DNA of 64,000 nt from a bacterium (GTDB taxonomy: Bacteria; Krumholzibacteriota; Krumholzibacteriia; LZORAL124-64-63): contig PIVY01000002.1 of NCBI GenBank assembly GCA_003353795.1, positions 12,552 through 76,551 of the forward strand, read 5' to 3'. Position numbers and translations under genes: made by a program. Within the stretch, counting starts at the first letter, position 1. Every line of letters begins with the position of its first letter. The notes under the pieces are model-generated. The model searched no databases. It saw nothing but the letters and a program-made list of their open reading frames with translations, and had not been told where the DNA came from. This document shows, piece by piece, positions 8,071-57,944 of the stretch.

Positions 8071-8326
8071 TCGATGGCGATGGTCGTGTCGGCCCATTCC
8101 ATGCGGCCGAGTCCGGCCACGGCGATCACCGCCCGGAATACGGGTGATTCGTCCCAGGACATGAATTCCATCCCCCAAAAAGTCGTCATTCAAAGGTGTC
8201 GTTGTCTGGTTTCCCCCCGACCGCGCGAGTCGGCGCGGATGTCTGAATTTAGAGACCAGCGAGACCGGGTCAAGCGGCGTAACGTATTTTGCGGATAACA
8301 CTTAGTTGATAACGTGGGGATATCGG

Positions 8327-40744: not shown

Positions 40745-41640
40745 GACTTTGCCTCCAGCCCGAGGACGAGACGGCCGGCGCTGACGCCGTCGGCGACGCC
40801 GAAGGCCTTGCGGAGCTTCCGCAGGGCCCGTTCGACCACGGTGTAGGCCTGCCGCTGGTTCTTCAGCTTCATTTCCGACGCGATCTGGCGGGCCGACAGG
40901 TTGCGGCCGAAGCGCATGGCCAACGCCTGGCGCTCCTGCTCGTCGAGGCGGGCGAGTTCCGCGCGCATCCTGCTGAGCAAGTGGTCCCGCTCGTCGGTGT
41001 GCGACTCCGCCTCCGGCTCGATCTCGACGGTTCGGGACGAGGCCTCGTAGCGCACATGGTCCACGTACTCGAGCCAGCGACCCGAGGGCACGCCGAGGCG
41101 GTGGGCCTGGCGGTCGAAGCGCAGTCGACGGCGCGCACGGTGGTCCAGCTGTCCGTCCATGTCCGAGAGCAACGACAGGAAGTCTTCGTAGTCGAGCCGT
41201 GCGCCTTCCGATTGCATCCGGCCGTAGACCGCTTTCGACGGCCAGCCCTGGACGAAGAACAGCTCGAAGACCCGCTGGTCCGTGGCCGGACGGCGCAGGA
41301 TCGGTGCGGGCAGGCGCACACGGCCGCGTTCGCGGCGGAGGCGGTCGACGGCCGCGTTGCGGACGATGAGTACCAGCCAGGTCCCGAAGGACGAGCGGCC
41401 GTCGAACTGCTCGAGCTTGCCGCGGAAGAGGCACTCGAATACGTCGGCCACGACGTCGCGGGCGAGGTCGTGATCATGGAGATGTCTATGGGCGACGGAT
41501 AGGGCGAGGCCCGTATAGTCCGTCACGAGGTCGCGCCAGGCCTCCGTGGAGCCAGAGACGGCAGACTGGACCTGGGCGAGATCCTGGTGTCCTTGCAAGA
41601 GTGGTATCGCTCCGGTAGCTGCGGGGTTCGGCGCCGGCAA
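40741..41640 (-). CDS. Sigma-70 family (ECF-like) sigma factor with an unusually long sigma2-sigma4 spacer
   Basis: The sigma2 region is WRDLVTDYTGLALSVAHRHL..ARDVVADVF...FGTWLVLIVRNAAVDRLRRE. The sigma4 HTH is LDEQERQALAMRFGRNLSARQIASEMKLKNQRQAYTVVERALRKLRKAF. The start is assigned to TTG 41640 (uncertain). Confidence 0.8.
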   Translation of the reverse strand: MPAPNPAATGAIPLLQGHQDLAQVQSAVSGSTEAWRDLVTDYTGLALSVAHRHLHDHDLARDVVADVFECLFRGKLEQFDGRSSFGTWLVLIVRNAAVDRLRRERGRVRLPAPILRRPATDQRVFELFFVQGWPSKAVYGRMQSEGARLDYEDFLSLLSDMDGQLDHRARRRLRFDRQAHRLGVPSGRWLEYVDHVRYEASSRTVEIEPEAESHTDERDHLLSRMRAELARLDEQERQALAMRFGRNLSARQIASEMKLKNQRQAYTVVERALRKLRKAFGVADGVSAGRLVLGLEAKS

Positions 41641-41695: not shown

Positions 41696-41784
41696 GACTC
41701 GTCCGTCTATAGCTACCATAGTTGGGGGATGAGGGAGAGACGCCGTCGGGACCGTCCAGCCATCGGGGCTGGGCGGTCCTTTTT
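41696..41784 (+). ncRNA. Candidate ~90-nt small RNA (promoter-like element to intrinsic terminator)
   Basis: It is defined only by the plus-strand reading of the 41661-41689 promoter and the strong terminator at 41749-41784. No convincing ORF is present, since MRERRRRD.. has no spacing to its G-run. Confidence 0.25.
41749..41784 (+). terminator. Strong intrinsic terminator with no annotated plus-strand gene upstream
   Basis: GGACCGTCCAGC (41749-41760), loop CATCGGG, GCTGGGCGGTCC (41768-41779). This gives 12 bp with one G-U, then TTTTT (41780-41784). Confidence 0.7.
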
Positions 41785-41816
41785 GGTATCGGCACGGGAA
41801 TCGATCCTGATTGGTC

Positions 41817-41845
41817 TTGACGGATCGCGCTCGTTGTCGTAATAT
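41817..41845 (+). promoter_or_regulatory. Sigma70-type promoter of the trp leader/operon
   Basis: TTGACG (41817-41822), 17-nt spacer, TAATAT (41840-41845). It sits in a locally AT-rich patch, ~50 nt upstream of the leader ATG. Confidence 0.6.
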
Positions 41846-41896
41846 TAAACATCAAATTCAAGCGCGCCGAGGTGCGCGCCCCGTCCGGAACCCGGA

Positions 41897-41986
41897 ATGG
41901 ACCCGATGACCCGCATCCGCAGCATCCTGATCGCGACCGACAGCCACCGTTATTGGTGGTCCTGGCGCGATCTGCCTTGCGGATAG
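41897..41986 (+). CDS. trpL: Tryptophan operon leader peptide (29 aa from ATG 41897, or 26 aa from in-frame ATG 41906)
   Basis: It encodes MDPMTRIRSILIATDSHRYWWSWRDLPCG*. UGG codons lie at 41954, 41957 and 41963. The stop TAG (41984-86) is embedded in attenuator segment 2. The ORF is too short for the ORF track. Confidence 0.65.
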   Translation: MDPMTRIRSILIATDSHRYWWSWRDLPCG

Positions 41987-42057
41987 GGGTCGTTCCGGAC
42001 ATCGAGACCAGCTGACAGACAGCCACCGGAACCGAAGCAGACCCGCTATCCGCAAGG
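41908..42057 (+). promoter_or_regulatory. Attenuator alternative pairings (segments 1, 2, 3)
   Basis: Segment 2, CCTTGCGGATAGGGGTC (41975-41991), pairs with segment 3, GACCCgCTATCCGCAAGG (42040-42057), over 17 bp with one bulge. Segment 1, GACCCGCATCCGCA (41908-41921), is a degenerate copy of segment 3 and can also pair with segment 2 (7 + 5 bp). Confidence 0.7.
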
Positions 42058-42072
42058 AGCGCGGGTTTTTTT
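42041..42072 (+). terminator. Attenuator terminator (segments 3:4)
   Basis: ACCCGC (42041-46) pairs with GCGGGT (42061-66). The upper stem is TCC-GCAA-GGA with a GNRA loop. A T7 run follows at 42066-42072, 27 nt before the trpE SD AAGGAG (42099-42104). Confidence 0.8.
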
Positions 42073-42111
42073 GTGCCCGGCAATGGCGCCGGGCGAACAA
42101 GGAGCGACCCC

Positions 42112-43590
42112 ATGGTCACGCCCGGCCTCTCGGACTTCCTCGATCTCGCACGCGACGGACGCACGGCGCCCCTGCGCCGCCGCATCCCCGCCGACCTGGA
42201 GACGCCGGTCTCTGCGTATCTCAAGCTGGCGCCCCTCGGTGCGGTCTGTCTGCTGGAGAGCGTGGAGCAGGGGATCCAGGTGGGGCGCTACTCGTTCATC
42301 GGCCTGGCGCCGCGATGCGCGGTCACCATCGAGGGCGACGCGGTCACCGTTGAGCGGGGCGGCGTCACCGAAACCAGCGACCTCGATCCCGCCGCGCCCT
42401 TCGCCGCCATCCAGGCCGAGCTCGAGCGGGCGCTGGACCTGGCCACCGGTGATCTGCCCGGCCCTCTCGGCGCGGCCGTGGGCTACCTCGGCTGGGAAAC
42501 CGTCCGCTACTTCGAGCGTGTGCCGCTGCCCACCGAAGGCCACGACGGTCTGCCCGATGCGCGCTTCGTGTTCCCGTCGCAGCTGGTGGTGTTCGACCAC
42601 GTGAAGAGCGAGATCGAGGTGGCGGTGCTGCCGCCGACCGAGCTTGCCGCGGAACCGGGATACGCGGCGGCGCAAGAGCACCTCGACCGTCTGCTCGCCG
42701 CCCTGCGCAGCCCGCTGCCGGCCGGCGCCATGCCCGAGCCGTGCGACCCGCTGGAGCCGGCGTCGCCCGAGATCCCGCGCGAACGTTTCGAGGCCTCCGT
42801 CGAGACCGCTCGCGAGCACATCCTGGCCGGCGACGCCTTCCAGATCGTGCTCTCGCAGCGTCTGCGTGGCCGCACGGCGGCGCATCCGTTCACGGTCTAC
42901 CGCGCGCTGCGCATCCTGAATCCTTCGCCCTACCTCTTCTACCTCGACTTCGGCGACTCCCAGCTCATCGGTTCGTCGCCCGAATCGCTGGTGGCCCTGG
43001 AGGGCGACCGCGCCCAGGTCTGCCCCATCGCCGGCACGCGGCCTCGTGGCGCCACGCCGGCCGAGGACAGCGAACTGGAAGCCGAGCTGCTGGCCAGCGA
43101 GAAGGAGAGGGCCGAACACCTGATGCTGGTGGACCTCGGCCGCAACGACCTCGGTCGCGTCTGTCGGCCGGGGACGGTCCGTCCGTCGAGCTTCCAGCAG
43201 GTGGAGCGCTACAGCCACGTCATGCACCTGGTCTCGCGGGTGGACGGTCGATTGCGGGAAGGTCTGGACGGCTGGGACCTGCTGCGCGCCACCTTCCCCG
43301 CGGGCACTCTCAGCGGCGCGCCGAAGATTCGCGCCATGGAGATCATCGGGGAGCTGGAGGACCGTCGGCGCGGTCCCTACGGCGGCGCGGTGGGCTACTT
43401 CGCGCCCGGCGGCGACCTCGACCTGTGTATCGCCATCCGCACCCTCGTGATGCAGGGCGACCGCTGGTGGGCCCAGGCCGGCGCCGGCATCGTGGCCGAC
43501 AGCGATCCCGCCTTCGAGTACGAGGAGACCCTGCACAAGCTGCAGGCCGTGACCCGCGCGGTGACCCGCGCCGAAGGAGGTCTGGAGTGA
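42112..43590 (+). CDS. trpE: Anthranilate synthase component I
   Basis: ATG 42112 lies 7 nt after AAGGAG; the track start 42073 falls inside the terminator. Family stretches are LLESVEQG..GRYSFIG, SPYLFYLDFGD, GTLSGAPKIRAMEII and RGPYGGAVGYF. Confidence 0.95.
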   Translation: MVTPGLSDFLDLARDGRTAPLRRRIPADLETPVSAYLKLAPLGAVCLLESVEQGIQVGRYSFIGLAPRCAVTIEGDAVTVERGGVTETSDLDPAAPFAAIQAELERALDLATGDLPGPLGAAVGYLGWETVRYFERVPLPTEGHDGLPDARFVFPSQLVVFDHVKSEIEVAVLPPTELAAEPGYAAAQEHLDRLLAALRSPLPAGAMPEPCDPLEPASPEIPRERFEASVETAREHILAGDAFQIVLSQRLRGRTAAHPFTVYRALRILNPSPYLFYLDFGDSQLIGSSPESLVALEGDRAQVCPIAGTRPRGATPAEDSELEAELLASEKERAEHLMLVDLGRNDLGRVCRPGTVRPSSFQQVERYSHVMHLVSRVDGRLREGLDGWDLLRATFPAGTLSGAPKIRAMEIIGELEDRRRGPYGGAVGYFAPGGDLDLCIAIRTLVMQGDRWWAQAGAGIVADSDPAFEYEETLHKLQAVTRAVTRAEGGLE

Positions 43591-44180
43591 TGTTGCTCAT
43601 GATCGACAACTACGACAGCTTCACCTACAACGTGGTGCAGGCGCTCGGCGAACTGGGCGCCGAGGTGACCGTGCGGCGCAACGACGCCGTCTCGCCGGAC
43701 GAGGCGGCGGCCCTGGCGCCGGCGGGCCTCATCATCTCGCCGGGCCCCGGCACGCCCGCCGACGCCGGCGTCTCCGCCGCGCTCATCGAGCAGTTTGCCG
43801 GACGCGTTCCGGTGCTCGGCATCTGTCTCGGCCACCAGACCATCGTCGAGGTCTTCGGCGGACGGATCCAGCGGGCCGAGCGGGTGATGCACGGCAAGAC
43901 CAGCCCGGTCTACAACGACGGCCGCACCATCTACTCCGGTCTGGGCAATCCGTTCACGGCCACCCGGTACCACTCGCTCATCGCCGTGGAGGGCGACCTG
44001 CCCGAAGCGCTCGAGATCAGCGCCTACACCGCCGAGGGCGAGATCATGGGCGTGCGCCATCGCCAGCTCGCCATCGAGGGCGTGCAGTTCCACCCCGAAT
44101 CGGTGATGACGCCCGAGGGCGCCCAGCTCCTTGGCAACTGGCTGCAGATCTGCACCGCGACGGGAGCGGTGGCGACATGA
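43590..44180 (+). CDS. trpG: Anthranilate synthase component II (glutamine amidotransferase)
   Basis: MLLMIDNYDSFTYNVVQ.. The triad context is GICLGHQ plus GVQFHPES. The start overlaps the trpE stop (TGATG), and GAAGGAGG lies upstream. Confidence 0.95.
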   Translation: MLLMIDNYDSFTYNVVQALGELGAEVTVRRNDAVSPDEAAALAPAGLIISPGPGTPADAGVSAALIEQFAGRVPVLGICLGHQTIVEVFGGRIQRAERVMHGKTSPVYNDGRTIYSGLGNPFTATRYHSLIAVEGDLPEALEISAYTAEGEIMGVRHRQLAIEGVQFHPESVMTPEGAQLLGNWLQICTATGAVAT

Positions 44181-45223
44181 ACGAGAATGTGATGAACGAC
44201 CTCCTCGCCGGACGTAGCCTCGATGCCACCGGCGCCGAGGCCCTCATGGGCGACATCATGACCGGCGCTCTGGACGCGGCTCGTCTCGGCGCCGTGCTGG
44301 CGGCGCTCCAGGTTCGGGGCGTCACGGCCGTCGAGCTCGGCGGCTTCGCCCGGGGCATGCGGGCCCGCGCTGTACCGGTCACCGCCGACTGCATCGACCG
44401 CGCCATCGACACCTGCGGCACCGGCGGCGACGGTCAGGGCACCTTCAACATCTCCACGGCCGCGGCGCTGGTGGCCGCCGCTGCGGGTGCGCCGGTGGCC
44501 AAGCACGGCAATCGCGCGGCCAGTTCCCTGTGCGGATCGGCCGATGTGCTCCAGGCCCTGGGCGTGAATCTGGACCTGGAGCCGGCCGCTCTGGGCCGCC
44601 TGCTCGACGAGGTCGGCATCGCCTTCCTGTTCGCACCGAATCACCACCCGGCCATGCGCCATGCCGTGCCGGTGCGGCGGTCGCTGGGCGTGCGCACGGT
44701 GTTCAACCTGCTGGGGCCGCTGACCAATCCAGCCGGCGTCCGTCGACAACTCCTCGGGGTGTACGCGCCCGAACTGGTGGACCTCATGGCCGGCGCCCTG
44801 CTCGAACTGGGCGCGGTGCGGGCGCTGGTGGTTCACGGCCACGACGGTCAGGACGAACTGGCGCTCACCGGCGAGACGCTGGTGGCCGAGATCGCGGACG
44901 GCAGCGTGACGCGACACACGGTGACGCCCGAGGATGCGGGACTGCAGCGGTGCGCCGCGGCCGACCTGGCCGGCGGTGACGCCGCGGCCAATGCCGACCT
45001 GATGCGCGGCGTGCTGACCGGCGAACCCGGACCGCGTACCGACGCCGTCCTTTTCAACGCGGGAGGCGCGCTCATGGCCGCCGATCTCGCCATCGATTTG
45101 CGCGAGGGCGTGGGTCTCGCGCGCGCGGCCGTGGGCGACGGCCGCGCCGCGACGCTGCTGGCCGATCTGGCCGCGGCTACCCACGACCTCGCGCGTGAAT
45201 CCAACGTGGGAGGCGAATCGTGA
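44177..45223 (+). CDS. trpD: Anthranilate phosphoribosyltransferase
   Basis: CGTGGDG.GTFNISTAAA..VAKHGNRA is the signature. ATGA overlap with trpG. Confidence 0.95.
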   Translation: MNENVMNDLLAGRSLDATGAEALMGDIMTGALDAARLGAVLAALQVRGVTAVELGGFARGMRARAVPVTADCIDRAIDTCGTGGDGQGTFNISTAAALVAAAAGAPVAKHGNRAASSLCGSADVLQALGVNLDLEPAALGRLLDEVGIAFLFAPNHHPAMRHAVPVRRSLGVRTVFNLLGPLTNPAGVRRQLLGVYAPELVDLMAGALLELGAVRALVVHGHDGQDELALTGETLVAEIADGSVTRHTVTPEDAGLQRCAAADLAGGDAAANADLMRGVLTGEPGPRTDAVLFNAGGALMAADLAIDLREGVGLARAAVGDGRAATLLADLAAATHDLARESNVGGES

Positions 45224-46026
45224 ACGGATTCCTGGAACGCGTCCGGGCCCAGAAGGAGGCCGAGGTCACCGTCGGTCAAGCCGGCCGCAGCCTGGCCGAT
45301 CTGCGCGCGGGGGTCGCCGACATGGCGCCGTGCCGCGATTTCCGCGGGGCGCTCACCGCGGGCAGCGACCGCATCATCGCCGAGGTGAAGCGCCGGTCGC
45401 CCAGCGTGCCGCAGTTCCTGCGACGGGAGCCGCCCGCCGAACTGGCCGCTCTTTACCACGAGGCCGGCGCCGCCGCGCTGTCGCTGGTGACCGACCGGGC
45501 CAATTTCGGCACGGGTCCGGCCGACATCGCACCCATGCGAGCGGCGGCGCCCCTGCCGCTCATCGCCAAGGACTTCATCATCGACCCCTGGCAGGTCCTG
45601 GCCTTGCGCGCCGCGGGCGCCGACGCCGTGCTACTCATCGCTCGATTGCTGGAGCCGAACCAGCTGGCCGACCTCCACGGACTCGCGCACGAGCTGGGTC
45701 TCGCCGCACTGGTGGAATGCCACACGGCGGGCGACCTGCGCGCCGCCCTCGCCGGCGGCGCCGACCTGGTGGGATTCAACAATCGAAACCTCGATACCTT
45801 CGAGGTCTCCCTGGACGTGAGCCGAGCCCTCCTGCCACAGGTGCCCGTGGGTTGCGCAGCCGTGGTGGAAAGCGGGCTGGCCGGACGGGCCGAGGTGGCG
45901 GCGCTGCAGGGCCTGGGCGCCACGGCGTTCCTGGTCGGCGGGTCGCTGCTCCAGTCGGATGATCCGGCCGCGATGCTGCGGGCCCTGCGAGGCGCCGACG
46001 ATTCGCGCCGCGAGGAGGTGTCGTGA
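45220..46026 (+). CDS. trpC: Indole-3-glycerol phosphate synthase
   Basis: The GTG start overlaps the trpD stop (GTGA). Family stretches are IIAEVKRRSPS, LSLVTD..F.G, LIAKDFIIDPWQV and VGFNNRNL. Confidence 0.93.
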   Translation: MNGFLERVRAQKEAEVTVGQAGRSLADLRAGVADMAPCRDFRGALTAGSDRIIAEVKRRSPSVPQFLRREPPAELAALYHEAGAAALSLVTDRANFGTGPADIAPMRAAAPLPLIAKDFIIDPWQVLALRAAGADAVLLIARLLEPNQLADLHGLAHELGLAALVECHTAGDLRAALAGGADLVGFNNRNLDTFEVSLDVSRALLPQVPVGCAAVVESGLAGRAEVAALQGLGATAFLVGGSLLQSDDPAAMLRALRGADDSRREEVS

Positions 46027-46682
46027 TGCGACCGCTCGTGAAGATCTGCGGCCTGACCCGGCCCGAGGACGCGCGCCTCTGCCGCGACGCCGGCGCCGAT
46101 CTGCTCGGCGTCATCTTCGCCGATAGTCCGCGCCAGGTAACCGTTGGACAGGCCGCCGACATCCGCGCCGCCTGTAGCCACGCGCCCCTGGTCGGCGTGT
46201 TCACCGACGGAACGCCCACGGCCATCGCCGAGGTGGTGGCCGCCGTGGGGCTCGACCTGGTGCAGTTGCACGCCTGCGACGACCCTGCTCGCTGGGAGGC
46301 GGTGGGCCGGGCGTCCGGAGTGTCGGTGCTGCCGGCGGTCACGGCCGACCGTGCCGACGACGCGGTCTCCGCCATGCTCGCGCGGCCCGACCTCTTGCTG
46401 GCGGGCCTGCTCCTCGACCTCCCCAAGCGTACCCGCGACGCCGGATCCGACGGCCGGGTCACATTGATCGAGACGGCGCGGCGTTGCCGCGATCGCGGTA
46501 TCCGCGTCATGCTTGCCGGCGCGCTCGATGCTGCTACCGTGCCGCTCGCCATGCGCGAGGTGAAACCGTTTGGGTTGGACGTTTGCCGCGGCGTGGAATC
46601 GGCGCCCGGTGTGAAGGATCCCGAACTGGTCGCACGATTCCTCGCCGCCGTCGATCATCCGGAGGTGGATCATGTCCACTGA
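46023..46682 (+). CDS. trpF: Phosphoribosylanthranilate isomerase
   Basis: [24 protein letters not shown]. The start is GTG 46023 (GTGA overlap) or ATG 46026. Confidence 0.9.
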
Positions 46683-47850
46683 GATTACTCGCGCCGGCCG
46701 CTTCGGCCCTTTCGGCGGACAGTACGTGCCGGAGACCCTCATGCCGGCGATCACCGAACTGGCCGCCGCTCACATCGAGGCGCTCGCCGACCCGGCGTTC
46801 GCCGCGGAACTCGATGCTCTGCTGGCCGACTTCGCCGGCCGGCCCACCCCGCTGTATCGCGCGCGCCGACTCGAGTCGGTGTTGCCCGGGGAAGCGCAGG
46901 TGTGGCTCAAGCGGGAAGACCTGGTCCACACCGGCGCCCACAAGCTCAACAACTGCCTCGGTCAGGTGCTGCTGGCGCGGCGCATGGGCAAGCGGCGCAT
47001 CATTGCCGAGACCGGCGCCGGCCAGCATGGCGTTGCCACCGCCGCGGTATGCGCCCACTTCGGCCTGGAGTGCACCGTCTACATGGGCGAGACCGACATG
47101 CAGCGGCAGCGTCCCAACGTGCAGCGCATGCGGCTGTTCGGCGCCGAGGTCCGGCCCGCGCTCACCGGCAGCCGCACCCTCAAGGACGCCACCAGCGAGG
47201 CCATCCGCGACTGGGTGGCCTCGGTGGCGACGACCCACTACATCATCGGATCGGTGGTCGGTCCGCATCCGTATCCGTCGCTGGTGGCCGACTTCCAGGC
47301 GGTGATCGGTCGCGAGGCGCGCGAGCAGATCTTCGCCGCCGCCGGCCGCCTTCCCAGCCACGCCCTGGCCTGCATCGGCGGCGGCAGCAATGCCATGGGA
47401 TTGTTCCGCGGCTTCCTCGATGACGGCGACGTCCGGCTGGTCGGCGTGGAGGCCGGCGGCGGTCCCGAGGGGCATGCTGCGACTCTCGGAAAGGGCGATC
47501 CCGGGGTGCTGCACGGCACGCTCTCGCTCCTGCTACAGGATCAGGACGGCCAGGTCGCGCCGGTGCACTCCATTTCCGCCGGCCTCGACTACCCGGGGGT
47601 CGGCCCCCAGCTGGCGCACCTCAAGGACAGCGGCCGGCTCGCCGTGGCCAGCGCCACCGATGCCGAGGCGCTGGACGCGCTGCGGTCGCTCTGCCGGCTC
47701 GAAGGCATCTTGCCGGCCCTGGAAACGGCCCACGCTCTGGCGCACCTGCAGACGCTCGCTGCCGATCCCGATGCCGATCTCATCGTGGTGAACCTTTCCG
47801 GGCGCGGCGACAAGGACCTCGACCACTTGCCCCCGGAGGTGTCGGCATGA
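46672..47850 (+). CDS. trpB: Tryptophan synthase beta chain
   Basis: [15 protein letters not shown] and [16 protein letters not shown] (the PLP Lys context) plus GGGSNAMG. It overlaps trpF by 11 nt, and GGAGGTGG lies upstream. Confidence 0.97.
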
Positions 47851-48650
47851 CCGCTCTCGAACGCGCGTGCCGCGACCGCCGCCAGCGAGGCGAGAAGGCG
47901 CTGGTGCCGTTCCTCACCGCGGGCTTCCCGGACGAGCGCACGTCGCTGGAACTGCTGGCCGCCTGCGCGCGGCGCGGCTGCGAGGTGGTGGAGATCGGCG
48001 TGCCGTTCTCCGACCCCGTGGCCGACGGCCCCGTGATCCAGCAGGCCAGCCAGGCCGCCCTGGCCGGCGGCATGACCCTGCGCCGAGCCCTCGACCTGGT
48101 GACCGAACTGAAGGACGAGGCGGTGCAGCCGGTGATGATGACCTACCTAAATCCGGTGCTGCGCCTGGGTCTGGACGAGTTCGCACGGCGGTCTGCGCGC
48201 GCCGGTTGCGCCGGCGTGATCGTGCCCGACCTGAGCAGCGAGGAAACGGCGCCGCTGCGCGACGCCCTCTCCGGCGAAGGCGTGGCCCTCGTCGACCTGG
48301 TGGCACCGACCACCACCGAGGATCGCATGGCCGCGATCACCGCCACCGCCGGCGGCTTCCTCTACCTGGTGGCGGTGGCTGGCGTGACCGGCACGACCAG
48401 CGCGAATGCTGCCGACCTGCAGTCCTTCACCGACCGCGTCCGCCGGCACACCGACCTGCCGCTCTACGTCGGCTTCGGCATCGACGGCGCCGTGAAGGCC
48501 CGCGAGGCCGTCCAGGCCGCCGACGGCGCCATCGTGGGCAGTGCGCTCATCCGGCGCCTGCTCGACAACCCGGATTCCGGCGGCGTGACAGCCGTCCTCG
48601 ACCTGGTCGACGAAATGCTCGCCGCCCTTTCCCGGAGGACCACCTCATGA
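47847..48650 (+). CDS. trpA: Tryptophan synthase alpha chain
   Basis: [11 protein letters not shown].., [17 protein letters not shown] and [17 protein letters not shown] overlap with trpB. Confidence 0.95.
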
Positions 48651-49699
48651 TGATCGTGACCATGCAGCCCGGCGCCTCGGTGGCCCAGATCGGCGCCGTG
48701 TTGCGGCACTGTCAGGAGCGCGACCTGCGACCGGTACCCAGCCACGGAACCGAGCGCACGGTGATCGGCGTCATCCATGCCGATCAACGCACCGACCTGT
48801 CCGCCGTGGCGTCCCTGCCGGGCGTGGACCAGGTCACGCCCGTGTCGGCCGCGCTCCAGCTGGTGAGCCGCGAGTTCCGCGACGAACCCACCGTGGTGCA
48901 CGTCGGCGGCGTGGCCATCGGCGGCCCCGAGTTCGTGGTCATGGCGGGCCCGTGTTCGGTGGAGACCGAGGCGCAAATCAATGCCTGTGCCCGTCAGGTG
49001 GGCGCCTGCGGCGGTCGCATCCTGCGAGGTGGCGCCTACAAGCCGCGCACGTCGCCGTACAGCTTTCAGGGACTGGGCGAGGAGGGGCTGCAACTCTTGA
49101 CCGCGGCCGGCCGCGCGGTGGGATTGCCCACGGTCACCGAGGTCATGCACCCCGATCTGGTGGAGACAGTGGCGAGGTATGCGGATATCCTGCAGATTGG
49201 CGCCCGCAACGTGCAAAACTACGCGTTGTTGTCGGCAGTGGGCAGGGTGCGCAAGCCCGTCCTTCTCAAGCGTGGGCTCATGACCACCATCGAGGAACTG
49301 CTCATGGCGGCCGAGTACATCCTGGCCGGAGGCAATGGACAGGTGATCCTCTGTGAACGCGGCATCCGCACCTTCGAGACGTCCGTGCGCAACACGCTGG
49401 ACGTGTCGGCCGTGCCGGTGATCAAGAGCCAGAGTCACCTGCCGGTGATCCTCGACCCGAGCCACGCTGCCGGCAAGCGCGAGTTCGTGCCGGCGCTGGC
49501 GCTGGCGTCGCTCGCCGCCGGCGCCGACGGCATCATGGTGGAGATGCATCCGGTGCCCGAGGAGGCGTACAGCGACGGTCGGCAGAGTCTCGACTTTCCC
49601 GGCTTCGCGGCGCTCATGGATTCGTTGCGGCCCGTGGGCGCGGCCCTGGGCCGACACGTGGCCGCGGTCCGGCCCGATCTGACGGAGGCGTCTGCATGA
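48647..49699 (+). CDS. aroF: 3-deoxy-7-phosphoheptulonate (DAHP) synthase, type I-beta, with an N-terminal ferredoxin/ACT-like domain
   Basis: ATG 48647 overlaps the trpA stop (ATGA), and CGGAGGA lies upstream. The core stretches are [43 protein letters not shown] and DPSH. The first ~85 aa ([19 protein letters not shown]...VTPV) are an extra domain. The track ORF 47867-49699 is a frame chimera. Confidence 0.92.
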
Positions 49700-51024
49700 G
49701 AGCGGTGGTGCGCGGCGCCCGAGGCGTGAACGGCGAGTTGAGTCTGCCGGGCGACAAGTCCCTGGCTCACCGCGCCCTCCTCTTCGGCGCGCTGGCCGAC
49801 GGCGAGATGCGCGTACGCGGACTGCCACCCGGCGGCGACGTTGCGAGCACGCGGAGCTGTCTCGAAACTCTCGGCGCACGTTTCGAGGACATCCCCGGCG
49901 GCGTGCGCGTGCTGCCGCCCGAGTCATGGCGTACCGGCGAGACGCTCGATTGCGGCAACTCCGGCACCACGACTCGCCTGCTCGCCGGCGTGCTCGCGGG
50001 CCTCGGCCTGGCGACCACCCTTGACGGCGACGCCTCGCTTCGCCGTCGTCCCATGCGCCGCGTGGCCGATCCGTTGCGCCTGCTTGGCGCGTCGGTGACG
50101 ACCCGCGAGGACGGCTGCCTGCCCCTGATAATCGCACCGCCGCGCGACCGGCTCGACGGCATCCGCGTGGAACTGGCCGTGGCCAGCGCACAGGTCAAGA
50201 GCGCGATCCTGCTGGCGGGATTGTTCGCCACCGGTCCGACCACCGTGGTCGAGCCGGCCCTGAGCCGCGACCACACCGAGCGCATGCTCGCGGCCATGGG
50301 TGTCGACGTGCAGCGCGACGGCCTGGCGGTGACCGTTCCCGGGCGACGCGACGACGGTGCCGCTCCCCGCCTTCACGGCCTGACGCTGGACCTGCCGGGC
50401 GACATCTCCACGGCGGCATTCTACCTCGCTGCCGGCGCCATGCGGCCGGGGTCGTCGGTGATTCTCCGGGGTGTGGGGATCAACCCGTCGCGCACCGGAA
50501 TCCTGGATGCCCTTCACGGCATGGGGGCGGCCGTGAAGCTGGCCAACGAACGCACGGCCGCCGGCGAGCCCGTGGCCGATCTGGCCACCGAGAGCTCGCC
50601 CATGCGGGGCATCTCGATCGGCGGCGACCTGGTGCCGCGCCTCATCGACGAGCTTCCCATTCTCGCAGTGGCGGCCACGGCGGCCGATGGCGCCACCGAG
50701 GTACGCGACGCCGCCGAGTTGCGGCACAAGGAATCCGACCGCATCGCGACCACGGTGACCCAGCTCGCACGCCTGGGCGCCGACATCCACGAACGGCCGG
50801 ACGGTTTCACCATTCACGGTCCTTGCCGCTTGCGCGGCGCCGAGGTGGATGCCGGCGGCGATCATCGTCTGGCCATGGCATTGGCCGTGGCGGCGCTGTC
50901 GGCCGAGGGCGAAACGGTGATCTCCGGCGCGGAGGCGGCCTCGGTCTCGCATCCCGACTTCTGGTCGGACGTGGCGCGCCTCGCCGGTCCCGATGCCGTG
51001 CGCCTCGAGGAGGAGAACGCGTGA
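49696..51024 (+). CDS. aroA: 3-phosphoshikimate 1-carboxyvinyltransferase (EPSP synthase)
   Basis: [30 protein letters not shown] and DHRLAMA. ATGA overlap with aroF. Confidence 0.95.
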
Positions 51025-51875
51025 CCGTTGGCGGCGCTTCCCGCGTATACGGCCTCATCGGCGACCCCGTGGCGCACAGCCTGTCCCCGCGCCTGATGAA
51101 CGACGCCTTCGCGCGGCTGGGCATCGACGCGGTGTACGTGGCCTGGCGCCTGGCGTCCGACTACGTGGGCTCGGCCGTGGCCGGCCTCGTGACCCTGGGC
51201 GTGGCCGGCGTCAACGTGACCTACCCGCACAAGGCCGCGGTGCTGCCTCACGTGGCGTCCCGCTCCAACGCGGTCGCAACGCTGGGCGCGGCCAATGTAC
51301 TGGCCCTCGACGCCGACGGTTTCCGGGCCGAGAACACCGACGCCGGGGGGACCGCACTGGCCTTGACCGAGTTGCTCGACTGGCCGGTGACCCACCGTCG
51401 CGTGGTGATCCTCGGCGCCGGCGGCGCGGGCCGGGCGGCGGCGCTGGGCCTGCTGGTCGCGGGAGCCGAGCGCGTCGACTTCCTGGTGCGCGACCGTTCG
51501 CGTGCCGAAGCCGGACTTGTCGGCTTGCGCGCGGCTCATGAAGCGGTCGCCGTCCACGTTCTCGACAGCCGCGACGCAGCCGGGTGCCTGGACGCTGCCC
51601 ACCTCGTGGTGCAGGCCACCCCGGTGGGTCTCGACGATCCCGGCGCTGCTTCCCTAATCGACCCGGCACAGGCGCCGAACGCCGCGGGATTCGAACTGGT
51701 CTACGGCGAACGCCCCACCGCGTTCGCCGCCGCCTGGCGCGGCGCCGGTCGACCGTGTCTCGACGGACGCGATCTGCTGGCGGCCCAGGCCCACCTGGCT
51801 CTTCATGTCTGGCTGAACGACGCGCCCGACCTGGCCGACATGCGCCGGGTCATTGCGCCCGAGGAGGTCGCGTGA
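51021..51875 (+). CDS. aroE: Shikimate dehydrogenase
   Basis: GTG 51021 overlaps the aroA stop (GTGA). Family stretches are YGLIGDPVAHSLSPRLMN, GVNVTYPHK, NTDAGG and ILGAGGAGRAAA. Confidence 0.9.
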   Translation: MTVGGASRVYGLIGDPVAHSLSPRLMNDAFARLGIDAVYVAWRLASDYVGSAVAGLVTLGVAGVNVTYPHKAAVLPHVASRSNAVATLGAANVLALDADGFRAENTDAGGTALALTELLDWPVTHRRVVILGAGGAGRAAALGLLVAGAERVDFLVRDRSRAEAGLVGLRAAHEAVAVHVLDSRDAAGCLDAAHLVVQATPVGLDDPGAASLIDPAQAPNAAGFELVYGERPTAFAAAWRGAGRPCLDGRDLLAAQAHLALHVWLNDAPDLADMRRVIAPEEVA

Positions 51876-53545
51876 CCACGACGAAACGCAACGTGGTGCT
51901 CACCGGATTCATGGGCACCGGCAAGACCGCCGTCGGCCGCGTTCTGGCCGACCTGCTCGGCCGCCCCTTCTGCGATCTGGATGCGGTGATCGAGGAGGCG
52001 GCCGGCTGTCCGGTGGCCGAGATCTTCGCGGCCGAAGGCGAGGACGGTTTCCGACGCCGCGAGCGGGAGGCCGCCGCCGCGGTTGGTGCCCGGCGCGGCC
52101 TGGTGGTCGCCACTGGCGGCGGCACCCTCATCGACCCGGCCAATCGCGAGGCACTCTCCGCCGGCGGCGACCTGGTCCTCCTGACCACTGCGGCGCCCGA
52201 ACTGGCCGACCGCCTCGGCGACGGCGCCGGGCAACGCCCGCTGCTGGCTGGCCACGATGACCTGCGCGCCCGCATCGCTGAACTCCTCGCCGAGCGCGCG
52301 TCCGTCTATGCCGGCTGCGACCACGAATTCGACACGACAGCGCTCGATGCCGACGAGGCCGCCGCCCTGCTGGCTGCGCGCCTGGCCACGCCGTTGACGG
52401 AGATCGACATCCCCGTTCCCGGCGCCGCCGGTCTGCCCGTGCTCGCTGCCCGCGAGCTCACCGGATCGCGCGTGGTCACCGGCCGCGGCACGGTCTGTCG
52501 GCTCGGCGCCGAACTGCGCGACCGCGGTGTCACCGGCCGCGTGGTGCTGGTCATGCCCGAGGTGGTGCGCGATCACTACCTTCCGCGCCTGGTCGCCTCT
52601 CTCGACGCCGCCGAACTGTCGTGGGGCCTGCTGGGAATTCGCGACGGCGACCAGGAGAAGACCTTCGCCCAGGTGGAGGATCTGGTGGACGCCCTGGCCG
52701 GCCTCAGCGCCGATCGTGGCACCTGCGTGGTGGCCGTGGGCGGCGGCGTGACCGGCGACCTGGTGGGCTTCAGCGCCGCGGTCTACATGCGCGGCGCGGC
52801 CCTGGCCATGGTGCCGACCACCCTGCTGGCCCAGGTCGACGCCCACATCGGCGGCAAGACCGGCGTCAACGGTCGCCGCGTCAAGAACCTGGCCGGCTGT
52901 TTCCATCCGCCCATTCTGGTGGTGGCCGACCCCTGCATGCTGGCCACCCTGCCGGACCGTGAGCTGGCCGGCGGCATGGCCGAGGTGGTCAAGTCGGCGC
53001 TCATCGGCGACCCCGCGCTCTTCGACCAGCTCGAGGCGGCGCTTGTCGATCCGGCCGAGAATCGCGACGGCGATCCGCGCCGCGACCCAGAACTGCTCGA
53101 GACCTGTGTGGCGGCTTGCGCCGCCGTGAAGGGCGGCGTGGTCAGTCGCGATCCCTGGGAACTGGGGGAGCGGCGCTTGTTGAACCTGGGCCACACTCTC
53201 GGCCATGCCCTCGAAGCCCAGAGCGCCTACGGTCTGAGCCATGGCGAGGCCGTGTCCATCGGCACCGTGGCGGCCCTGCAAGTGGCCGTGGCGCGCGGCG
53301 CCGCCGAGGCCGATCTCCTCGACCGTACCCGCCGCCTGCTGCAGGCCTGCGGGCTGCCCACCACACCGCCCGAATACGATGCCGCCGACCTCCTCTCGCG
53401 ATTGCATCTGGACAAGAAGCGGCGTGACGGTCGACAGTTCTTCGTGCTGCCACTCGCCGCGGGCGACGTGGTGGTCGTGGACGACGTCGACGATGACGAG
53501 GCCCTCGCGGCCCTGGCCAGGGAGCAAGCGTGCGCATCCTCGTGA
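51872..53545 (+). CDS. aroKB: Bifunctional shikimate kinase / 3-dehydroquinate synthase fusion
   Basis: GTG 51872 overlaps the aroE stop (GTGA). The N-terminal kinase has the GFMGTGKT Walker A and DGFRRRE. The C-terminal DHQ synthase has [32 protein letters not shown] and [12 protein letters not shown]. Confidence 0.9.
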
Positions 53546-53991
53546 TTCACGGACCGAACCTGAACCTCTTGGGCATCCGCGAGCCGGAAGTCTACGGCAA
53601 GACGACCCTGCAGGAGATCAACCGGAGCCTGCGGGCGCGCGGCGAGGAGATCGGCGCGGCCATCTCCGATTTCCAGAGCAACCACGAGGGCGACATCGTC
53701 GACCGCATCCAGGCGGCGGCCCTCGATATTCCTCGGGCCGACGGCATCATCCTCAACCCGGCGGGCTACACCCACACCAGCGTGGCCATCCGCGATGCGC
53801 TCACGGCGGTGAGCCTGCCCACCTGGGAGATCCACATCTCCGATCCGTCGAAACGCGAGAAGTTCCGCCACGTGTCGCTGGTGCGCGACATCTGCGTGGG
53901 CTGCACCGCCGGCCGCGGCTCGGGCGGCTACATCGAGGCACTGGACGGGCTCGTGGCACACTTGAATTCCGGCGGGGAGGCGTCGTCATGA
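53530..53991 (+). CDS. aroQ: Type II 3-dehydroquinate dehydratase
   Basis: The GTG start gives [30 protein letters not shown] and [11 protein letters not shown] are present. It overlaps aroKB by 16 nt. Confidence 0.93.
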
Positions 53992-55073
53992 GTAGCGTCT
54001 TCGGCCGCCTGTTTCGCGTGAGCACTTTCGGCGAGAGCCATGGCGCCGGCCTCGGAGCGGTGGTGGACGGCTGCCCGCCCCGGCTGCCCCTCTCGGTGAC
54101 CGACATCCAGGCCGCTCTCGATCGTCGGCGTCCCGGCCAGAGCGCGCTGACCACGCCGCGCCAGGAGCCTGATCAGGTGGAGATCCTCTCCGGCGTTCAG
54201 GATGGCGCCACCCTGGGAACGCCCATCGGCCTCCTGATCCGCAACACCGACCAGAAGCCGGCCGACTACAAGGACACCGACGAGGTCCCGCGGCCGAGTC
54301 ACGCCGACTACACCTACCAGATGAAGTATGGTATGCGCGCCCGCAGCGGCGGCGGTCGGGCCAGCGCTCGCGAGACGGCAGCCCGGGTCGCAGCCGGCGC
54401 CGTGGCCTCGCAGCTCCTGCGCTTGCGCTGGGGCGTGGAGGTGGTGGCCTGGGTGGACGCGGTGGGCGACGAGGATCCCGCCCTCGTGGATCCCGCGACC
54501 GTCACCCAGGATGCCGTCGATACCAATGCCGTGCGTTGCCCCGACATCGACGCGGCCGATCGCTTCACCGATCTGATCACCAGCGCCCGCGACGCCGGCG
54601 ATTCGGTGGGCGGCGTGGTGGCCTGCGTGGTGCGCGGCTGTCCTGCCGGCTGGGGCGAGCCGGTGTTCGAGAAGGCCGAGGCACGCCTGGCCGGCGCCAT
54701 GCTGTCGCTGCCGGCGAGCAAGGGATTCGAGATCGGCAGCGGATTCGCCGGCACGCGGTTGCGCGGCAGTCAGCACAACGATGCGTTCGTGGCGCGGGCC
54801 GATGGTTCTCTCGGCACGGCTACCAATCGCAGCGGCGGTGTGCAGGGCGGCATCACCAACGGGGAGCCGGTGGTCATCCGGGTGGCGTTCAAGCCGACGT
54901 CGACCATCGCCATGCCGCAGCCGACGGTGGACTACGAGGGCAAGGCGACGGTGCTGGAGGCGAAAGGGCGCCATGATCCCTGCGTGTTGCCGCGGGCGGT
55001 GCCCATCGTGGAGGCGATGGCGGCGCTGGTGATGGCGGATCTGGGGATGTTGCAGGCGGGGCGGGACGACTAG
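53988..55073 (+). CDS. aroC: Chorismate synthase
   Basis: ATG 53988 overlaps the aroQ stop (ATGA). Family stretches are [34 protein letters not shown] and GRHDPCV. Confidence 0.95.
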
Positions 55074-55476
55074 GGCCAGCCAGTGGGAAGCCGGGCGGCG
55101 GTCATCCGACCTGCCCCGCGATCTTGTAGAGTACAAAGGTCGAGCACCCCGTCCTGCCGCGCAGTGCCTCGAGCCGCACCTCATCGAGCTGAATCCGGCA
55201 CCGGCGCACGGACTGCAGTTTCCGCCAATTGGGGGCGTCATTGTTGCGGAGCCAGGCCGTTCGGGCTCCGATTCCAGCCTGTGAATCGAAGGCACACTGG
55301 GCAGGGCGCGCACTCGTCGGCAAGCCTGGTCGGCGTCATCCGGTTCATTATGTAACTCATATAACAACAAAGTTTTGCGGTTGCCGTGGGACGTGTCGTT
55401 CACGATGGCACGACCGCTGCTTTGCCGGCTGGTGAAGCAACGGTTCCTCAACCATCGACTCTGTGGAGGCAACACC

Positions 55477-57936: not shown

Positions 57937-57944
57937 GCCAGAAC

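Follow-up and report, generated by a model that had tools for sequence, protein, structure and literature searches.

A spacer-free cluster of tryptophan and shikimate pathway genes behind a leader-peptide attenuator and its occurrence in related contigs

The window, a 64-kb stretch of DNA, contains a genuine spacer-free cluster of trp and shikimate pathway genes located behind a leader-peptide attenuator. On the + strand, this unit extends over 12,962 nt from the ATG of trpE at 42112 to the TAG of aroC ending at 55073, and is composed of trpE-G-D-C-F-B-A followed by the DAHP synthase gene (aroF), aroA, aroE, aroK::aroB, aroQ and aroC. Its features suggest, with some reserve on our part, that it is probably expressed as one long, translationally coupled trp/aro supraoperon under a tryptophan attenuator. 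The novelty resides in this particular composition, since clusters of this kind are already known from DAHP synthase genes found after trpA (PMC2395257) and from mixed trp/aro supraoperons (PMC1173090).

Gene content and junctions

The 13 ORFs encode 14 catalytic domains and none of their translations is interrupted by an internal stop. Genes were assigned using Pfam domains together with NCBIfam equivalog or subfamily cut-offs, the latter being passed by trpE, trpG, trpD, trpB, trpA, the DAHP synthase gene, aroA, aroQ and aroC, while trpC, trpF and aroE fall under the equivalog cut-offs although they clearly belong to the right families. The trp branch starts with trpE (42112-43590; anthranilate synthase component I), which displays the Chorismate_bind and Anth_synt_I_N domains and scores 530.7 bits with TIGR00564 (cut-off 517.7), and trpG (43590-44180; glutamine amidotransferase component II, GATase). 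These are followed by trpD (44177-45223; anthranilate phosphoribosyltransferase, Glycos_transf_3, TIGR01245 392 bits), trpC (45220-46026; indole-3-glycerol phosphate synthase, full-length IGPS, 4e-61), trpF (46023-46682; phosphoribosylanthranilate isomerase, PRAI, 3e-26) and the genes for the beta and alpha subunits of tryptophan synthase, trpB (46672-47850; PALP, TIGR00263 563 bits) and trpA (47847-48650; Trp_syntA, TIGR00262 226 bits).

The shikimate part begins with a type I-beta DAHP synthase (48647-49699; DAHP_synth_1 and DAHP_snth_FXD, NF006421 470 bits). The ferredoxin-like N-terminal regulatory domain that had been claimed for this enzyme is present, the protein aligning end to end, regulatory domain included, with the Thermotoga maritima enzyme (1RZM/3PG9; E = 7e-104), which makes feedback at the enzyme level a reasonable idea. 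Next are aroA (49696-51024; EPSP synthase, EPSP_synthase, TIGR01356 367 bits) and aroE (51021-51875; Shikimate_dh_N, 2e-21). By its scores, the latter is the least certain assignment of the 13 genes, with 163 bits for an equivalog cut-off of 248 and NCBIfam matches that all belong to the shikimate dehydrogenase family, two of them being quinate/shikimate dehydrogenase models. A single 557-aa ORF, aroK::aroB (51872-53545; SKI, DHQ_synthase and DHQS_C), fuses shikimate kinase to 3-dehydroquinate synthase, the aroB score being at the NCBIfam cut-off (304.8 vs 305 bits); this fusion also occurs in the relatives described below and in the contig L038. The unit ends with aroQ (53530-53991; type II 3-dehydroquinate dehydratase, DHquinase_II) and aroC (53988-55073; chorismate synthase, Chorismate_synt, 460 bits).

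Overlaps were found at all 12 junctions, by 1 nt (TGATG) for trpE/trpG, by ATGA for trpG/trpD, trpB/trpA, trpA/aroF, aroF/aroA and aroQ/aroC, by GTGA for trpD/trpC, trpC/trpF, aroA/aroE and aroE/aroK::aroB, and by 11 and 16 nt for trpF/trpB and aroK::aroB/aroQ, respectively. Every start is preceded by a GGAGG-like, Shine-Dalgarno-like site (AGGAG at 42100-42104 for trpE), which lies within the upstream gene at each of the 12 junctions. ORF translation, Pfam domains and re-derivation of the junction types thus agree exactly with the earlier note, in which the gene order, its coordinates and length, 12 overlapping junctions with zero spacer, and seven shikimate plus seven Trp-branch activities had been described.

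A leader peptide and attenuator upstream of trpE

The region located 5' of trpE (41817-42072) carries a promoter, a leader ORF and a classical 1:2 / 2:3 / 3:4 attenuator, with the attenuator proper occupying 41906-42072. The sigma-70-like promoter (TTGACG-17-TAATAT; 41817-41845) is the sole promoter-like match on the + strand between 41000 and 56500, and equivalents (TTGACR-N17-TAnnnT) are located 5' of the leaders in the related contigs L001, L004 and L084. The leader ORF (41906-41986, + strand) has 26 codons, MTRIRSILIATDSHRYWWSWRDLPCG*, and includes the motif RYWWSWR, in which Tyr is encoded at 41951 and Trp at 41954, 41957 and 41963; its stop codon is at 41984-41986. W-rich leaders with 3-4 Trp codons each occur at the same position in L001 (RWWYWR), L084 (SWWYWP), L002 (TWWWWH) and L004 (GWWWWR), together with an antiterminator and a terminator.

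Three mutually exclusive helices can be formed. In the 1:2 hairpin, or anti-antiterminator (41914-41984), which was obtained in minimum-free-energy folds of the full leader (z = -5.1 vs shuffles), early leader coding sequence pairs with the Trp-codon region and CCTTGCGGAT. In the 2:3 antiterminator (41975-42057; -43 kcal/mol), region 2 (41975-41998), which spans the leader stop, pairs with region 3 (42026-42057), which holds the 5' arm of the terminator. The 3:4 intrinsic terminator (42040-42072; -16.4 kcal/mol) consists of a hairpin at 42040-42067 and a T7 run at 42066-42072. Both of the last two helices covary in five sequences, with 3 compensatory pairs each and 89% of cells paired for 2:3 (slid controls 35-46%) and 98% for 3:4 (slid controls 37-54%). 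The full leader folds as 1:2 plus terminator; with a ribosome halted at the Trp codons in the simulation, the antiterminator formed as a 24-bp helix, and with the ribosome at the stop codon the terminator formed alone. The attenuator announced in the earlier note is real, although it lies outside the coordinates given there, but calling it Trp-specific is slightly too strong because a Tyr codon adjoins the three Trp codons in Y-W-W-S-W.

Conservation of the unit in related contigs

The same gene order occurs in five further contigs, so that it is not confined to the window: L002, L003 and L004 are complete except that L003 lacks trpE and trpG because of the contig end, and L082 and L083 are partial. 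Protein identities between these contigs and the window range from 41 to 81%, the closest named relatives being Krumholzibacteriia. In four relatives, matching junctions are mostly identical 4-, 11- and 16-nt overlaps, with the exception of a few 1-4-nt gaps and, in L002, of two larger apparent gaps. Judging from these contigs, the layout is real and conserved among related uncultured bacteria. An assembly or binning chimera that fused separate trp and aro operons, which the earlier note would have suspected had the order been unique to this contig, was rejected because five contigs derived independently from various assemblies and metagenomes show the identical order, and its probability is negligible; the 4-nt trpA/DAHP synthase overlap shared by the window and L001 to L004 and the uniform GC content of the unit also argue against it. 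No evidence supporting such a chimera was found. Genes flanking the unit show no conservation among the relatives.

Two sister contigs, L084 and L001, carry leader-trpEGDCFBA-DAHP synthase and encode a chorismate mutase::prephenate dehydrogenase fusion (CM::tyrA), either directly after the DAHP synthase gene with a 4-nt overlap (L084) or nearby (L001). Chlamydiales contigs display trpEGDC(F)BA-DAHP synthase, which together with the sister contigs indicates that a DAHP synthase gene joined to trpA is a recurrent arrangement. Given the sister contigs, in which this block is followed by CM::tyrA, the older core is probably a trp operon that already contained DAHP synthase. The canonical trpEGDCFBA operon would then have grown at its 3' end by acquiring first a feedback-regulated DAHP synthase and then the other six shikimate pathway activities.

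As stated in the earlier note, neither chorismate mutase nor pheA nor tyrA was detected in the 64-kb window, and none was found within 10 kb of the unit in L002 to L004. This might suggest an organism without Phe and Tyr branches that imports both amino acids and uses chorismate almost only for Trp, in which case it would make full sense for a Trp sensor to govern the entire route; the W-only leaders of L002 and L004 point in the same direction. Such a lifestyle is nevertheless very unlikely, as the window's leader retains a Tyr codon and as the CM::tyrA genes of L084 and L001 indicate that the clade does make tyrosine.

Alternatively, the aro genes of the unit may represent a second, Trp-dedicated set, with housekeeping paralogs elsewhere feeding Phe, Tyr and cofactors. 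There is a precedent for such duplication (PMC1173090) and the sequence analysed represents 64 kb of the genome. This explanation is rather improbable, however, since tblastn located each gene of the unit just once in the window, the DAHP synthase bears a general feedback domain and, a weak argument, the four related assemblies have one type I-beta DAHP synthase locus each among the 80 matches retained in a genome scan. Furthermore, an orthologous aroC (68% identical) adjoins the operon on the opposite strand in L001 and other aro genes are missing from the 10 kb downstream in L084, which looks like one set rearranged rather than duplicated.

Expression of the unit

In the supraoperon that we favour, transcription would start at the sigma-70-like promoter and the 26-codon leader would be translated. 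When Trp-tRNA is plentiful, the ribosome would reach the stop codon and mask region 2, so that the terminator hairpin and its T7 run would end most transcripts. When Trp-tRNA or, to a lesser degree, Tyr-tRNA is scarce, it would stall at Y-W-W-S-W (41951-41965) and open the 1:2 hairpin, region 2 would pair with region 3, and RNA polymerase would enter all 13 genes. These would be co-transcribed as a 13-kb mRNA along which the 1-, 4-, 11- and 16-nt overlaps and the Shine-Dalgarno sites in upstream genes would couple translation. Basal read-through would suffice to supply the chorismate needed to make Phe, Tyr, folate and quinones, and an effector acting on the ferredoxin-like/ACT-type domain of DAHP synthase may restrain flux into the pathway at the level of the enzyme.

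A competing explanation is that one or more promoters within trp coding sequence, either constitutive or responsive to Phe/Tyr, drive the aro half, which would then not be subordinate to the Trp attenuator, as might be expected from the need for chorismate in the other pathways just cited. Among the leaders compared, a W-dominated one over shikimate genes is genuinely unusual, since the DAHP synthase genes of other phyla sit behind mixed W/F/Y and not W-only leaders; as a sensor for the common pathway it would perform poorly, an argument for another input. Internal promoters are also frequent in long operons, as exemplified by the weak or non-canonical trp p2 of the E. coli trp operon. On the other hand, a consensus-based scan of the + strand, which weak or non-canonical promoters escape, revealed no sigma-70-like site within the unit even at a threshold relaxed to 8/12 matches. 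The leader promoters of the window, L001, L004 and L084 are near consensus, so that similar internal sites would be detectable. The unit has an even GC content with no AT-rich island (lowest 40-nt window at least 47.5% GC), and the overlaps mostly shared by the relatives leave no conserved non-coding spacer to hold a promoter. Internal control of the aro half thus appears unlikely, yet it is the most serious of the competing explanations.

Scanning 42112-55073 on the + strand revealed no terminator-like hairpin with a T-run, in agreement with the earlier note. No clear intrinsic terminator was found in the ca. 300-400 nt non-coding stretch located 3' of aroC, an observation that was counted against the single-operon reading.

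Comparison with known systems

The trpE-G-D-C-F-B-A order, the short leader with clustered Trp codons, and the exclusive 1:2, 2:3 and 3:4 helices with a U-tailed terminator shortly 5' of trpE resemble the E. coli-type trp operon with trpL. The window differs by six genes covering all seven shikimate activities, added after trpA without spacer, and its leader differs by the Tyr codon beside the Trp codons and by yielding no leader-family match at the Rfam gathering score (best sub-threshold, Leu_leader). A trpL-trpEGDCFBA operon with a leader-peptide attenuator has also been reported in Corynebacterium glutamicum (PMC11802643).

The Bacillus subtilis aro supraoperon (aroF-aroB-aroH-trpEDCFBA-hisC-tyrA-aroE) is likewise a large cluster in which trp genes and genes of the common pathway share one orientation (PMC1173090). 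There, however, the trp operon is inserted in an aro operon that includes only part of the common pathway, together with tyrA and hisC, and regulation relies on the TRAP protein, whereas the window has a putatively ribosome-mediated attenuator, no tyrA and, as the earlier note had contrasted, all seven common steps downstream of trp. Trp and common-pathway genes are also mixed in the Nostoc/Anabaena "redundant" supraoperon, which is limited to tyrA and the first two common steps and all of whose genes have paralogs elsewhere, and in Desulfovibrio vulgaris, in which aro, phe and tyr genes (aroA'-aroB'-pheA-aroF-tyrA) lie upstream of the trp operon (PMC1173090).

A DAHP synthase gene directly after trpA on the same strand is shared with Sargasso Sea contigs (PMC2395257), with the Chlamydiales contigs (L064, L067 and L075) and with L001 and L084, but these units end at this gene or run into CM::tyrA (L084) while the window adds aroA, aroE, aroK::aroB, aroQ and aroC. 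A similar layout of the aro block is that of a Desulfarculaceae-type cluster (L035, L038, L039, L044, L045, L111 and L117), in which a leader and terminator precede trpE-trpG and then DAHP synthase-aroA-aroE-aroK::aroB-aroC-aroQ. As in the window, trp genes and, before them, a leader-peptide attenuator precede the whole common pathway, and the cluster has the same aroK::aroB fusion and a nearly identical block order. This cluster is nonetheless split in three units with their own leaders: the first leader mixes W, F and Y (VWFYWW), the second (FFYFYYF) precedes DAHPS2-CM::pheA-tyrA, and the third unit, trpDCFBA, lies behind two tandem W-rich leaders, whereas a single W-dominated leader stands ahead of everything in the window. 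Finally, a DAHP synthase gene under ribosome-mediated attenuation also occurs in the aroR-aroF operon of C. glutamicum, whose Phe-Tyr-Phe leader senses Phe (PMC11802643), while the presumed sensing codons of the window are three Trp and one Tyr.

Gene content and organisation of the trp/aro unit

The unit spans 12,962 nt (42112-55073) on the forward strand of the window, whose GC content is ca. 68-72%, and consists of 13 ORFs that all translate without interruption. The first seven, trpE (42112-43590), trpG (43590-44180), trpD (44177-45223), trpC (45220-46026), trpF (46023-46682), trpB (46672-47850) and trpA (47847-48650), are co-oriented, occur in the canonical order and encode all seven catalytic domains of the tryptophan branch. 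They are followed by genes for a DAHP synthase (DAHPS, 48647-49699), aroA (49696-51024), aroE (51021-51875), an aroK::aroB fusion (51872-53545), aroQ (53530-53991) and aroC (53988-55073), with which the seven activities of the common pathway are complete (DAHP synthase, DHQ synthase, DHQ dehydratase, shikimate dehydrogenase, shikimate kinase, EPSP synthase and chorismate synthase). All products were assigned by Pfam, and the equivalog or subfamily cut-offs of NCBIfam were passed by TrpE, TrpG, TrpD, TrpB, TrpA, DAHPS, AroA, AroQ and AroC, the AroB part of the fusion scoring right at its cut-off. TrpC and TrpF, which both passed the Pfam cut-off, scored below their NCBIfam equivalog cut-offs, as did AroE (163 versus 248 bits); all matches of these three were still to the expected enzyme family, but shikimate dehydrogenase is, because of this score, the least certain of the seven shikimate steps.

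Translation and Pfam searches recovered the gene order and length described in an earlier note made from the sequence alone, and the overlaps that it had listed for the 12 junctions were found exactly as given. At each of these 12 junctions, a GGAGG-like site located within the upstream gene precedes the downstream start. The absence of an internal hairpin followed by a T-run, also reported there, was confirmed by a terminator scan of the forward strand of the unit. No intrinsic terminator was detected after aroC, the region 55060-55380 folding no better than shuffled sequence (z = +0.7).

The DAHPS is predicted to be a type I-beta DAH7P synthase with an N-terminal ferredoxin-like/ACT regulatory domain of the Thermotoga maritima type. 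Its product combines a DAHP_synth_1 barrel (PF00793, 1.7e-76) with an N-terminal PF18152 domain (3.5e-16) and matches NF006421 with 470 bits for a cut-off of 335. An alignment with the T. maritima enzyme (1RZM/3PG9, E = 7e-104) pairs residues 2-336 of the DAHPS with 1-335 of that enzyme, regulatory domain included, and its end-to-end extent establishes the presence of the N-domain that the first reading had proposed. Inhibition by Tyr and Phe is known for the enzyme of T. maritima, and a similar response of the DAHPS described here would provide feedback at the enzyme level.

A putative ribosome-mediated attenuator upstream of trpE

A promoter scan located a site resembling a promoter (TTGACG-17-TAATAT, 41817-41845, forward strand) 5' of trpE, and translation of the region that follows revealed a leader ORF of 26 codons (41906-41986, forward strand) encoding MTRIRSILIATDSHRYWWSWRDLPCG. 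Its aromatic codons are a Tyr codon at position 16 and Trp codons at positions 17, 18 and 20, with no Phe codon. When the entire leader was folded, the minimum-free-energy structure was composed of a hairpin between regions 1 and 2 (41914-41984), corresponding to an anti-antiterminator, and of a terminator hairpin between regions 3 and 4 (42040-42067), also detected by the terminator scan and associated with a run of seven T (42066-42072) that lies 39 nt ahead of the trpE ATG; this fold has a z-score of -5.1 relative to shuffled sequences. Masking the leader to ca. 41971, which mimics ribosome stalling at the Trp codons, led to the pairing over 24 bp of region 2 (41975-41998) with region 3 (42026-42057), an antiterminator that uses up the 5' arm of the terminator. 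Region 2 begins 10 nt past the last Trp codon and spans the stop codon of the leader, and masking to ca. 41999, which mimics a ribosome at that stop codon, left the terminator to form alone.

Both alternative helices are supported by covariation. An alignment of the leaders of five contigs, a small sample that nonetheless gave a consistent result, showed 89% pairing and three compensatory pairs for the antiterminator (35-46% pairing in slid controls) and 98% pairing and three compensatory pairs for the terminator (37-54%). Since columns 143-157 are common to both helices, the two structures are mutually exclusive. A search of the entire window gave no Rfam match at gathering score, and the best hit of a permissive scan of the leader was Leu_leader with 13.8 bits for a gathering score of 50; the leader would therefore qualify as an attenuator by its architecture rather than by membership of a curated Rfam family. 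On these structural grounds it is best described as a predicted leader-peptide attenuator of the trpL type. The Trp-specific attenuator that had been proposed for this unit was thus found as an architecture, just 5' of the interval 42112-55073 given in the earlier note, but the specificity needs qualification because a Tyr codon adjoins the three Trp codons. This single codon may add a minor Tyr input; alternatively, it may serve structure, since it contributes to the UUAU loop that the inner 1:2 hairpin forms.

A second strong terminator-like hairpin, of 14 bp (10 G-C) with a TTTTTGG tail, occurs on the forward strand at 41748-41786, ca. 35 nt 5' of the trp promoter. No obvious gene of that strand ends there, the adjoining gene (40741-41640) being on the reverse strand, and the hairpin could either shield the trp promoter from transcription arriving from upstream or correspond to the end of a small RNA.

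Predicted transcription of the unit

The reading that these data support best, and which is considered fairly probable, is that the whole unit would be transcribed into a single polycistronic mRNA, with coupled translation, in amounts determined by ribosome-mediated attenuation at the Trp codons. Chorismate required for other uses would then derive from basal read-through of the terminator, with feedback at the enzyme level exerted by the DAHPS. The strongest rival is a promoter within the unit that escapes consensus scans and drives the aro genes, given that the leader is poorly suited as a sensor for a trunk pathway. Such a promoter is nevertheless rather unlikely: scans for the sigma-70 consensus, from which weak or non-sigma-70 promoters can escape, detected no sigma-70-like site on the forward strand of the unit, even when relaxed to 8 of 12 matches. 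The most AT-rich 40-nt stretch of the unit has a GC content of 47.5%.

Another explanation would be that the aro genes form a redundant, Trp-dedicated set, as described for the supraoperon of the Nostoc/Anabaena type in which every gene has a paralog elsewhere (PMC1173090). No paralog of any gene of the unit was found within the 64-kb window, and this explanation is regarded as improbable.

Conservation of the unit in related contigs

Scans with the DAHPS protein returned at least 80 genome loci and at least 80 metagenome loci, onto which the 14 domains of the window were mapped by tblastn. A survey of synteny, which the earlier note had recommended, revealed that the order found in the window recurs completely in three contigs (L002, L003 and L004, with L003 lacking trpE and trpG at its contig end) and partly in two others (L082 and L083). 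Proteins of these relatives are 41-81% identical to those of the window; in a further contig, L085, the trpA-DAHPS junction is present and the DAHPS is 90% identical. The closest loci, L004 and a sister contig with a shorter operon (L001), are labelled Candidatus Krumholzibacteriia. T9SS-type sorting domains, present in other parts of the window, are consistent with an organism of the FCB group. The occurrence of the same order in other contigs excludes an assembly chimera.

Nearly all junctions in L001, L003 and L004 display the same 4-, 11- or 16-nt overlaps, and L002 has two larger apparent gaps. Comparison of the proteins flanking the unit with those of the relatives gave a single match, a partial ExbB located ca. 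4.4 kb 3' of aroC in L004; since the flanks are not conserved, the conserved module is the unit itself and does not extend further. Two of the relatives differ locally, as the trpD frame is open through to the trpF stop in L002 (5025-7730) and L004 (5514-8012), with a trpD-trpC spacing ca. 200 nt larger than in the window. These long frames may represent an open-frame artefact of high GC content, an assembly frameshift or a real insertion.

Wherever sequence 5' of trpE is available, the relatives all carry a W-rich leader ORF there together with antiterminator and terminator helices, and a hairpin comparable to 1:2 also appears in the folds of their full leaders. The leader peptides are homologous to that of the window and contain three or four Trp, ending with TTRWWYWRGLSSG in L001 and STSWWYWPGLSSG in L084 (a second sister contig) and including STWWWWHG in L002 and TTGWWWWRS in L004. 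A Tyr codon occurs in the leaders of the window, L001 and L084 and is absent from those of L002 and L004. Folding energies were compared to see whether terminators of the 13-gene type are systematically weaker, as a deliberately weak terminator would require. Those of the window (-16.4 kcal/mol) and L002 (-16.2) are weaker than those of the shorter operons of L001 (-21.5) and L084 (-23.6), but L004 (-26.5) breaks this trend.

Putative origin of the unit

Both sister contigs L001 and L084 present a leader followed by trpEGDCFBA and DAHPS with no other aro gene in the operon. In L084, a gene encoding a chorismate mutase::prephenate dehydrogenase (CM::tyrA) fusion (8035-9159) overlaps the end of DAHPS by 4 nt; in L001, an orthologous aroC adjoins the operon on the opposite strand and is followed by the same CM::tyrA fusion (12179-13465). 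The trpEGDC(F)BA-DAHPS arrangement was further found in three Chlamydiales contigs (L064, L067 and L075), and Kagan et al. described DAHP synthase genes 3-20 bp past trpA in Sargasso Sea contigs (PMC2395257). Because of these cases, trp plus DAHPS preceded by a Trp leader appears to be the recurrent core, which the type found in the window would have extended by aroA-aroE-aroK::aroB-aroQ-aroC, the direction of this change being the one suggested by the comparison. A different association was observed in a contig labelled Candidatus Peribacteria (L074:5788-12913), where DAHPS lies inside the trp operon (trpE-G-D-C-DAHPS-trpB-trpA).

The CM::tyrA genes of the sister contigs indicate that the clade has a tyrosine branch, which weighs against chorismate serving Trp only. 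An organism devoid of both the Phe and Tyr branches, for which a Trp-controlled common pathway would raise no difficulty, is for this reason a very remote prospect. The leaders of both CM::tyrA-bearing contigs have a Tyr codon interspersed with the Trp codons (WWYW), and leader composition may therefore follow operon content.

Leaders and aromatic gene clusters in other lineages

Leader ORFs were also found in more distant lineages. Among the matches listed, ca. 50 loci of Syntrophales and related Thermodesulfobacteriota (for example L005, L016, L017, L020 and L096-L099) have a conserved leader ORF ca. 210 nt 5' of DAHPS, such as MATKILSNNWYWFYYFYAPVCPLLRRT and of the general type M…NWYWFYYFYAPVCPLLRRT, in which W, Y and F codons are mixed. 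This leader precedes DAHPS-aroB-…-aroA-(aroK)-aroC, and a separate leader of the NWWWWN type is located between aroC and the downstream trpE.

Contigs of the Desulfarculaceae type (L038:1070-17613; L035, L039, L044, L045, L111 and L117) carry nearly all aromatic amino acid genes on one strand, distributed in three units, each preceded by a leader of its own. In the first unit, a …FGVWFYWWRSP… leader and a terminator precede trpE-trpG-DAHPS1-aroA-aroE-aroK::aroB-aroC-aroQ. The second starts with a leader containing DVFFYFYYFTAV (…FFYFYYF…; from 9668 in L038) followed by DAHPS2-CM::pheA-tyrA, while the third has two tandem W-rich leaders (12849 and 13009 in L038), each with a terminator, ahead of trpDCFBA. 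We know of no published description of this three-unit cluster. The motif TTATTGGTGG (Tyr-Trp-Trp) is common to the leader of the window (41950-41959) and to three leaders of the Desulfarculaceae type (L038:12870-12882, 13042-13052), and the cores of the leader peptides are alike (RYWWSWRD in the window, FYWWRWRD in L038). This could reflect shared descent or leader transfer, or else a structural constraint imposed by the pairing of UGGUGG with CCACC.

Leader codon composition generally tracks the downstream products across the lineages compared, with mixed-aromatic leaders ahead of DAHPS. A Phe-Tyr-Phe leader (aroR) likewise controls a DAHPS operon in Corynebacterium glutamicum (PMC11802643). 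The leader of the window, with three Trp codons, one Tyr codon and no Phe codon ahead of the entire common pathway, is therefore a true outlier, and the unit represents an informative exception to the pattern seen in the Desulfarculaceae- and Syntrophales-type loci. This contrast accentuates the paradox pointed out in the earlier note.

Comparison with known systems and significance

Mixed trp/aro supraoperons have already been described in B. subtilis, D. vulgaris and Nostoc (PMC1173090). The contrast with the B. subtilis aro supraoperon that had been drawn from the sequence holds: there, trp genes are nested inside the aro operon, with aro genes upstream and hisC-tyrA-aroE downstream, whereas in the window all aro genes lie 3' of trpA, neither tyrA nor hisC is present and a divergent sigma-factor gene sits 5' of the leader. 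Control probably differs as well, since B. subtilis relies on TRAP-mediated attenuation via (G/U)AG leader repeats while the leader of the window has a complete ribosome-mediated architecture. No arrangement with all seven common-pathway activities placed after trpA and behind a Trp leader is described in the literature surveyed, which included part of the subscription literature, and a search for work on how Krumholzibacteriota make aromatic amino acids gave no specific result.

Trp leader attenuators, whole-pathway trp operons, trp with an appended DAHPS and mixed trp/aro supraoperons are all known, and the unit reveals neither a new regulatory principle nor a new enzyme. Its components and its device are classical; what is unusual is the composition, the total absence of spacers and the wiring of a trunk pathway to the sensor of one branch. 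This last feature, regarded as a "regulatory paradox" in the earlier note, can be taken to a stricter form in which the distal part of the trp mRNA would be the sole transcript for the clade's only copies of the seven shikimate activities. Charging of tRNA-Trp at three leader codons would then set, at the level of transcription, all aromatic carbon entry, including that for Phe, Tyr, folate and quinones, with basal read-through and DAHPS allostery as the only relief. This stricter form is put forward tentatively and is somewhat doubtful. If true, it would amount to a design with a single input and would reverse the hierarchy usually seen, where control of the common pathway is either independent of the branches or placed upstream of them.

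Overall, the route from PEP and E4P to Trp is encoded here by 14 catalytic domains with all junctions overlapping behind one putative attenuator, in a poorly studied uncultured lineage. To our knowledge, no other arrangement for tryptophan would come closer to "one mRNA, one pathway". It offers a clean natural setting in which to test the behaviour of a shared trunk pathway wired to a single-branch sensor and, in practical terms, a compact and naturally balanced 13-kb cassette for chorismate-to-tryptophan production.

Other features of the window

The 13 proteins of the unit contain less W (0.49% versus 1.79%), F (2.2% versus 3.5%) and Y (1.25% versus 3.0%) than the products of the other ORFs of the window, a contrast that is probably inflated because outer-membrane and secreted proteins are abundant in the comparison set. 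A gene for a 930-aa CHAT-domain protein (37095-39887, reverse strand) adjoins that of a sigma-70 family protein with regions 2 and 4 (40741-41640, reverse strand); both genes, located 5' of the trp leader and in opposite orientation to it, appear unrelated to the trp/aro unit. Finally, an ORF of 900 aa (57897-60599, its start being a crude ORF call) encodes an N-terminal TonB_C domain combined with CarboxypepD_reg and Plug domains and a TonB-dependent receptor barrel, and is found 3' of genes for ExbB, ExbD and a separate TonB_C protein. The fusion of TonB_C to a receptor is an unusual architecture.
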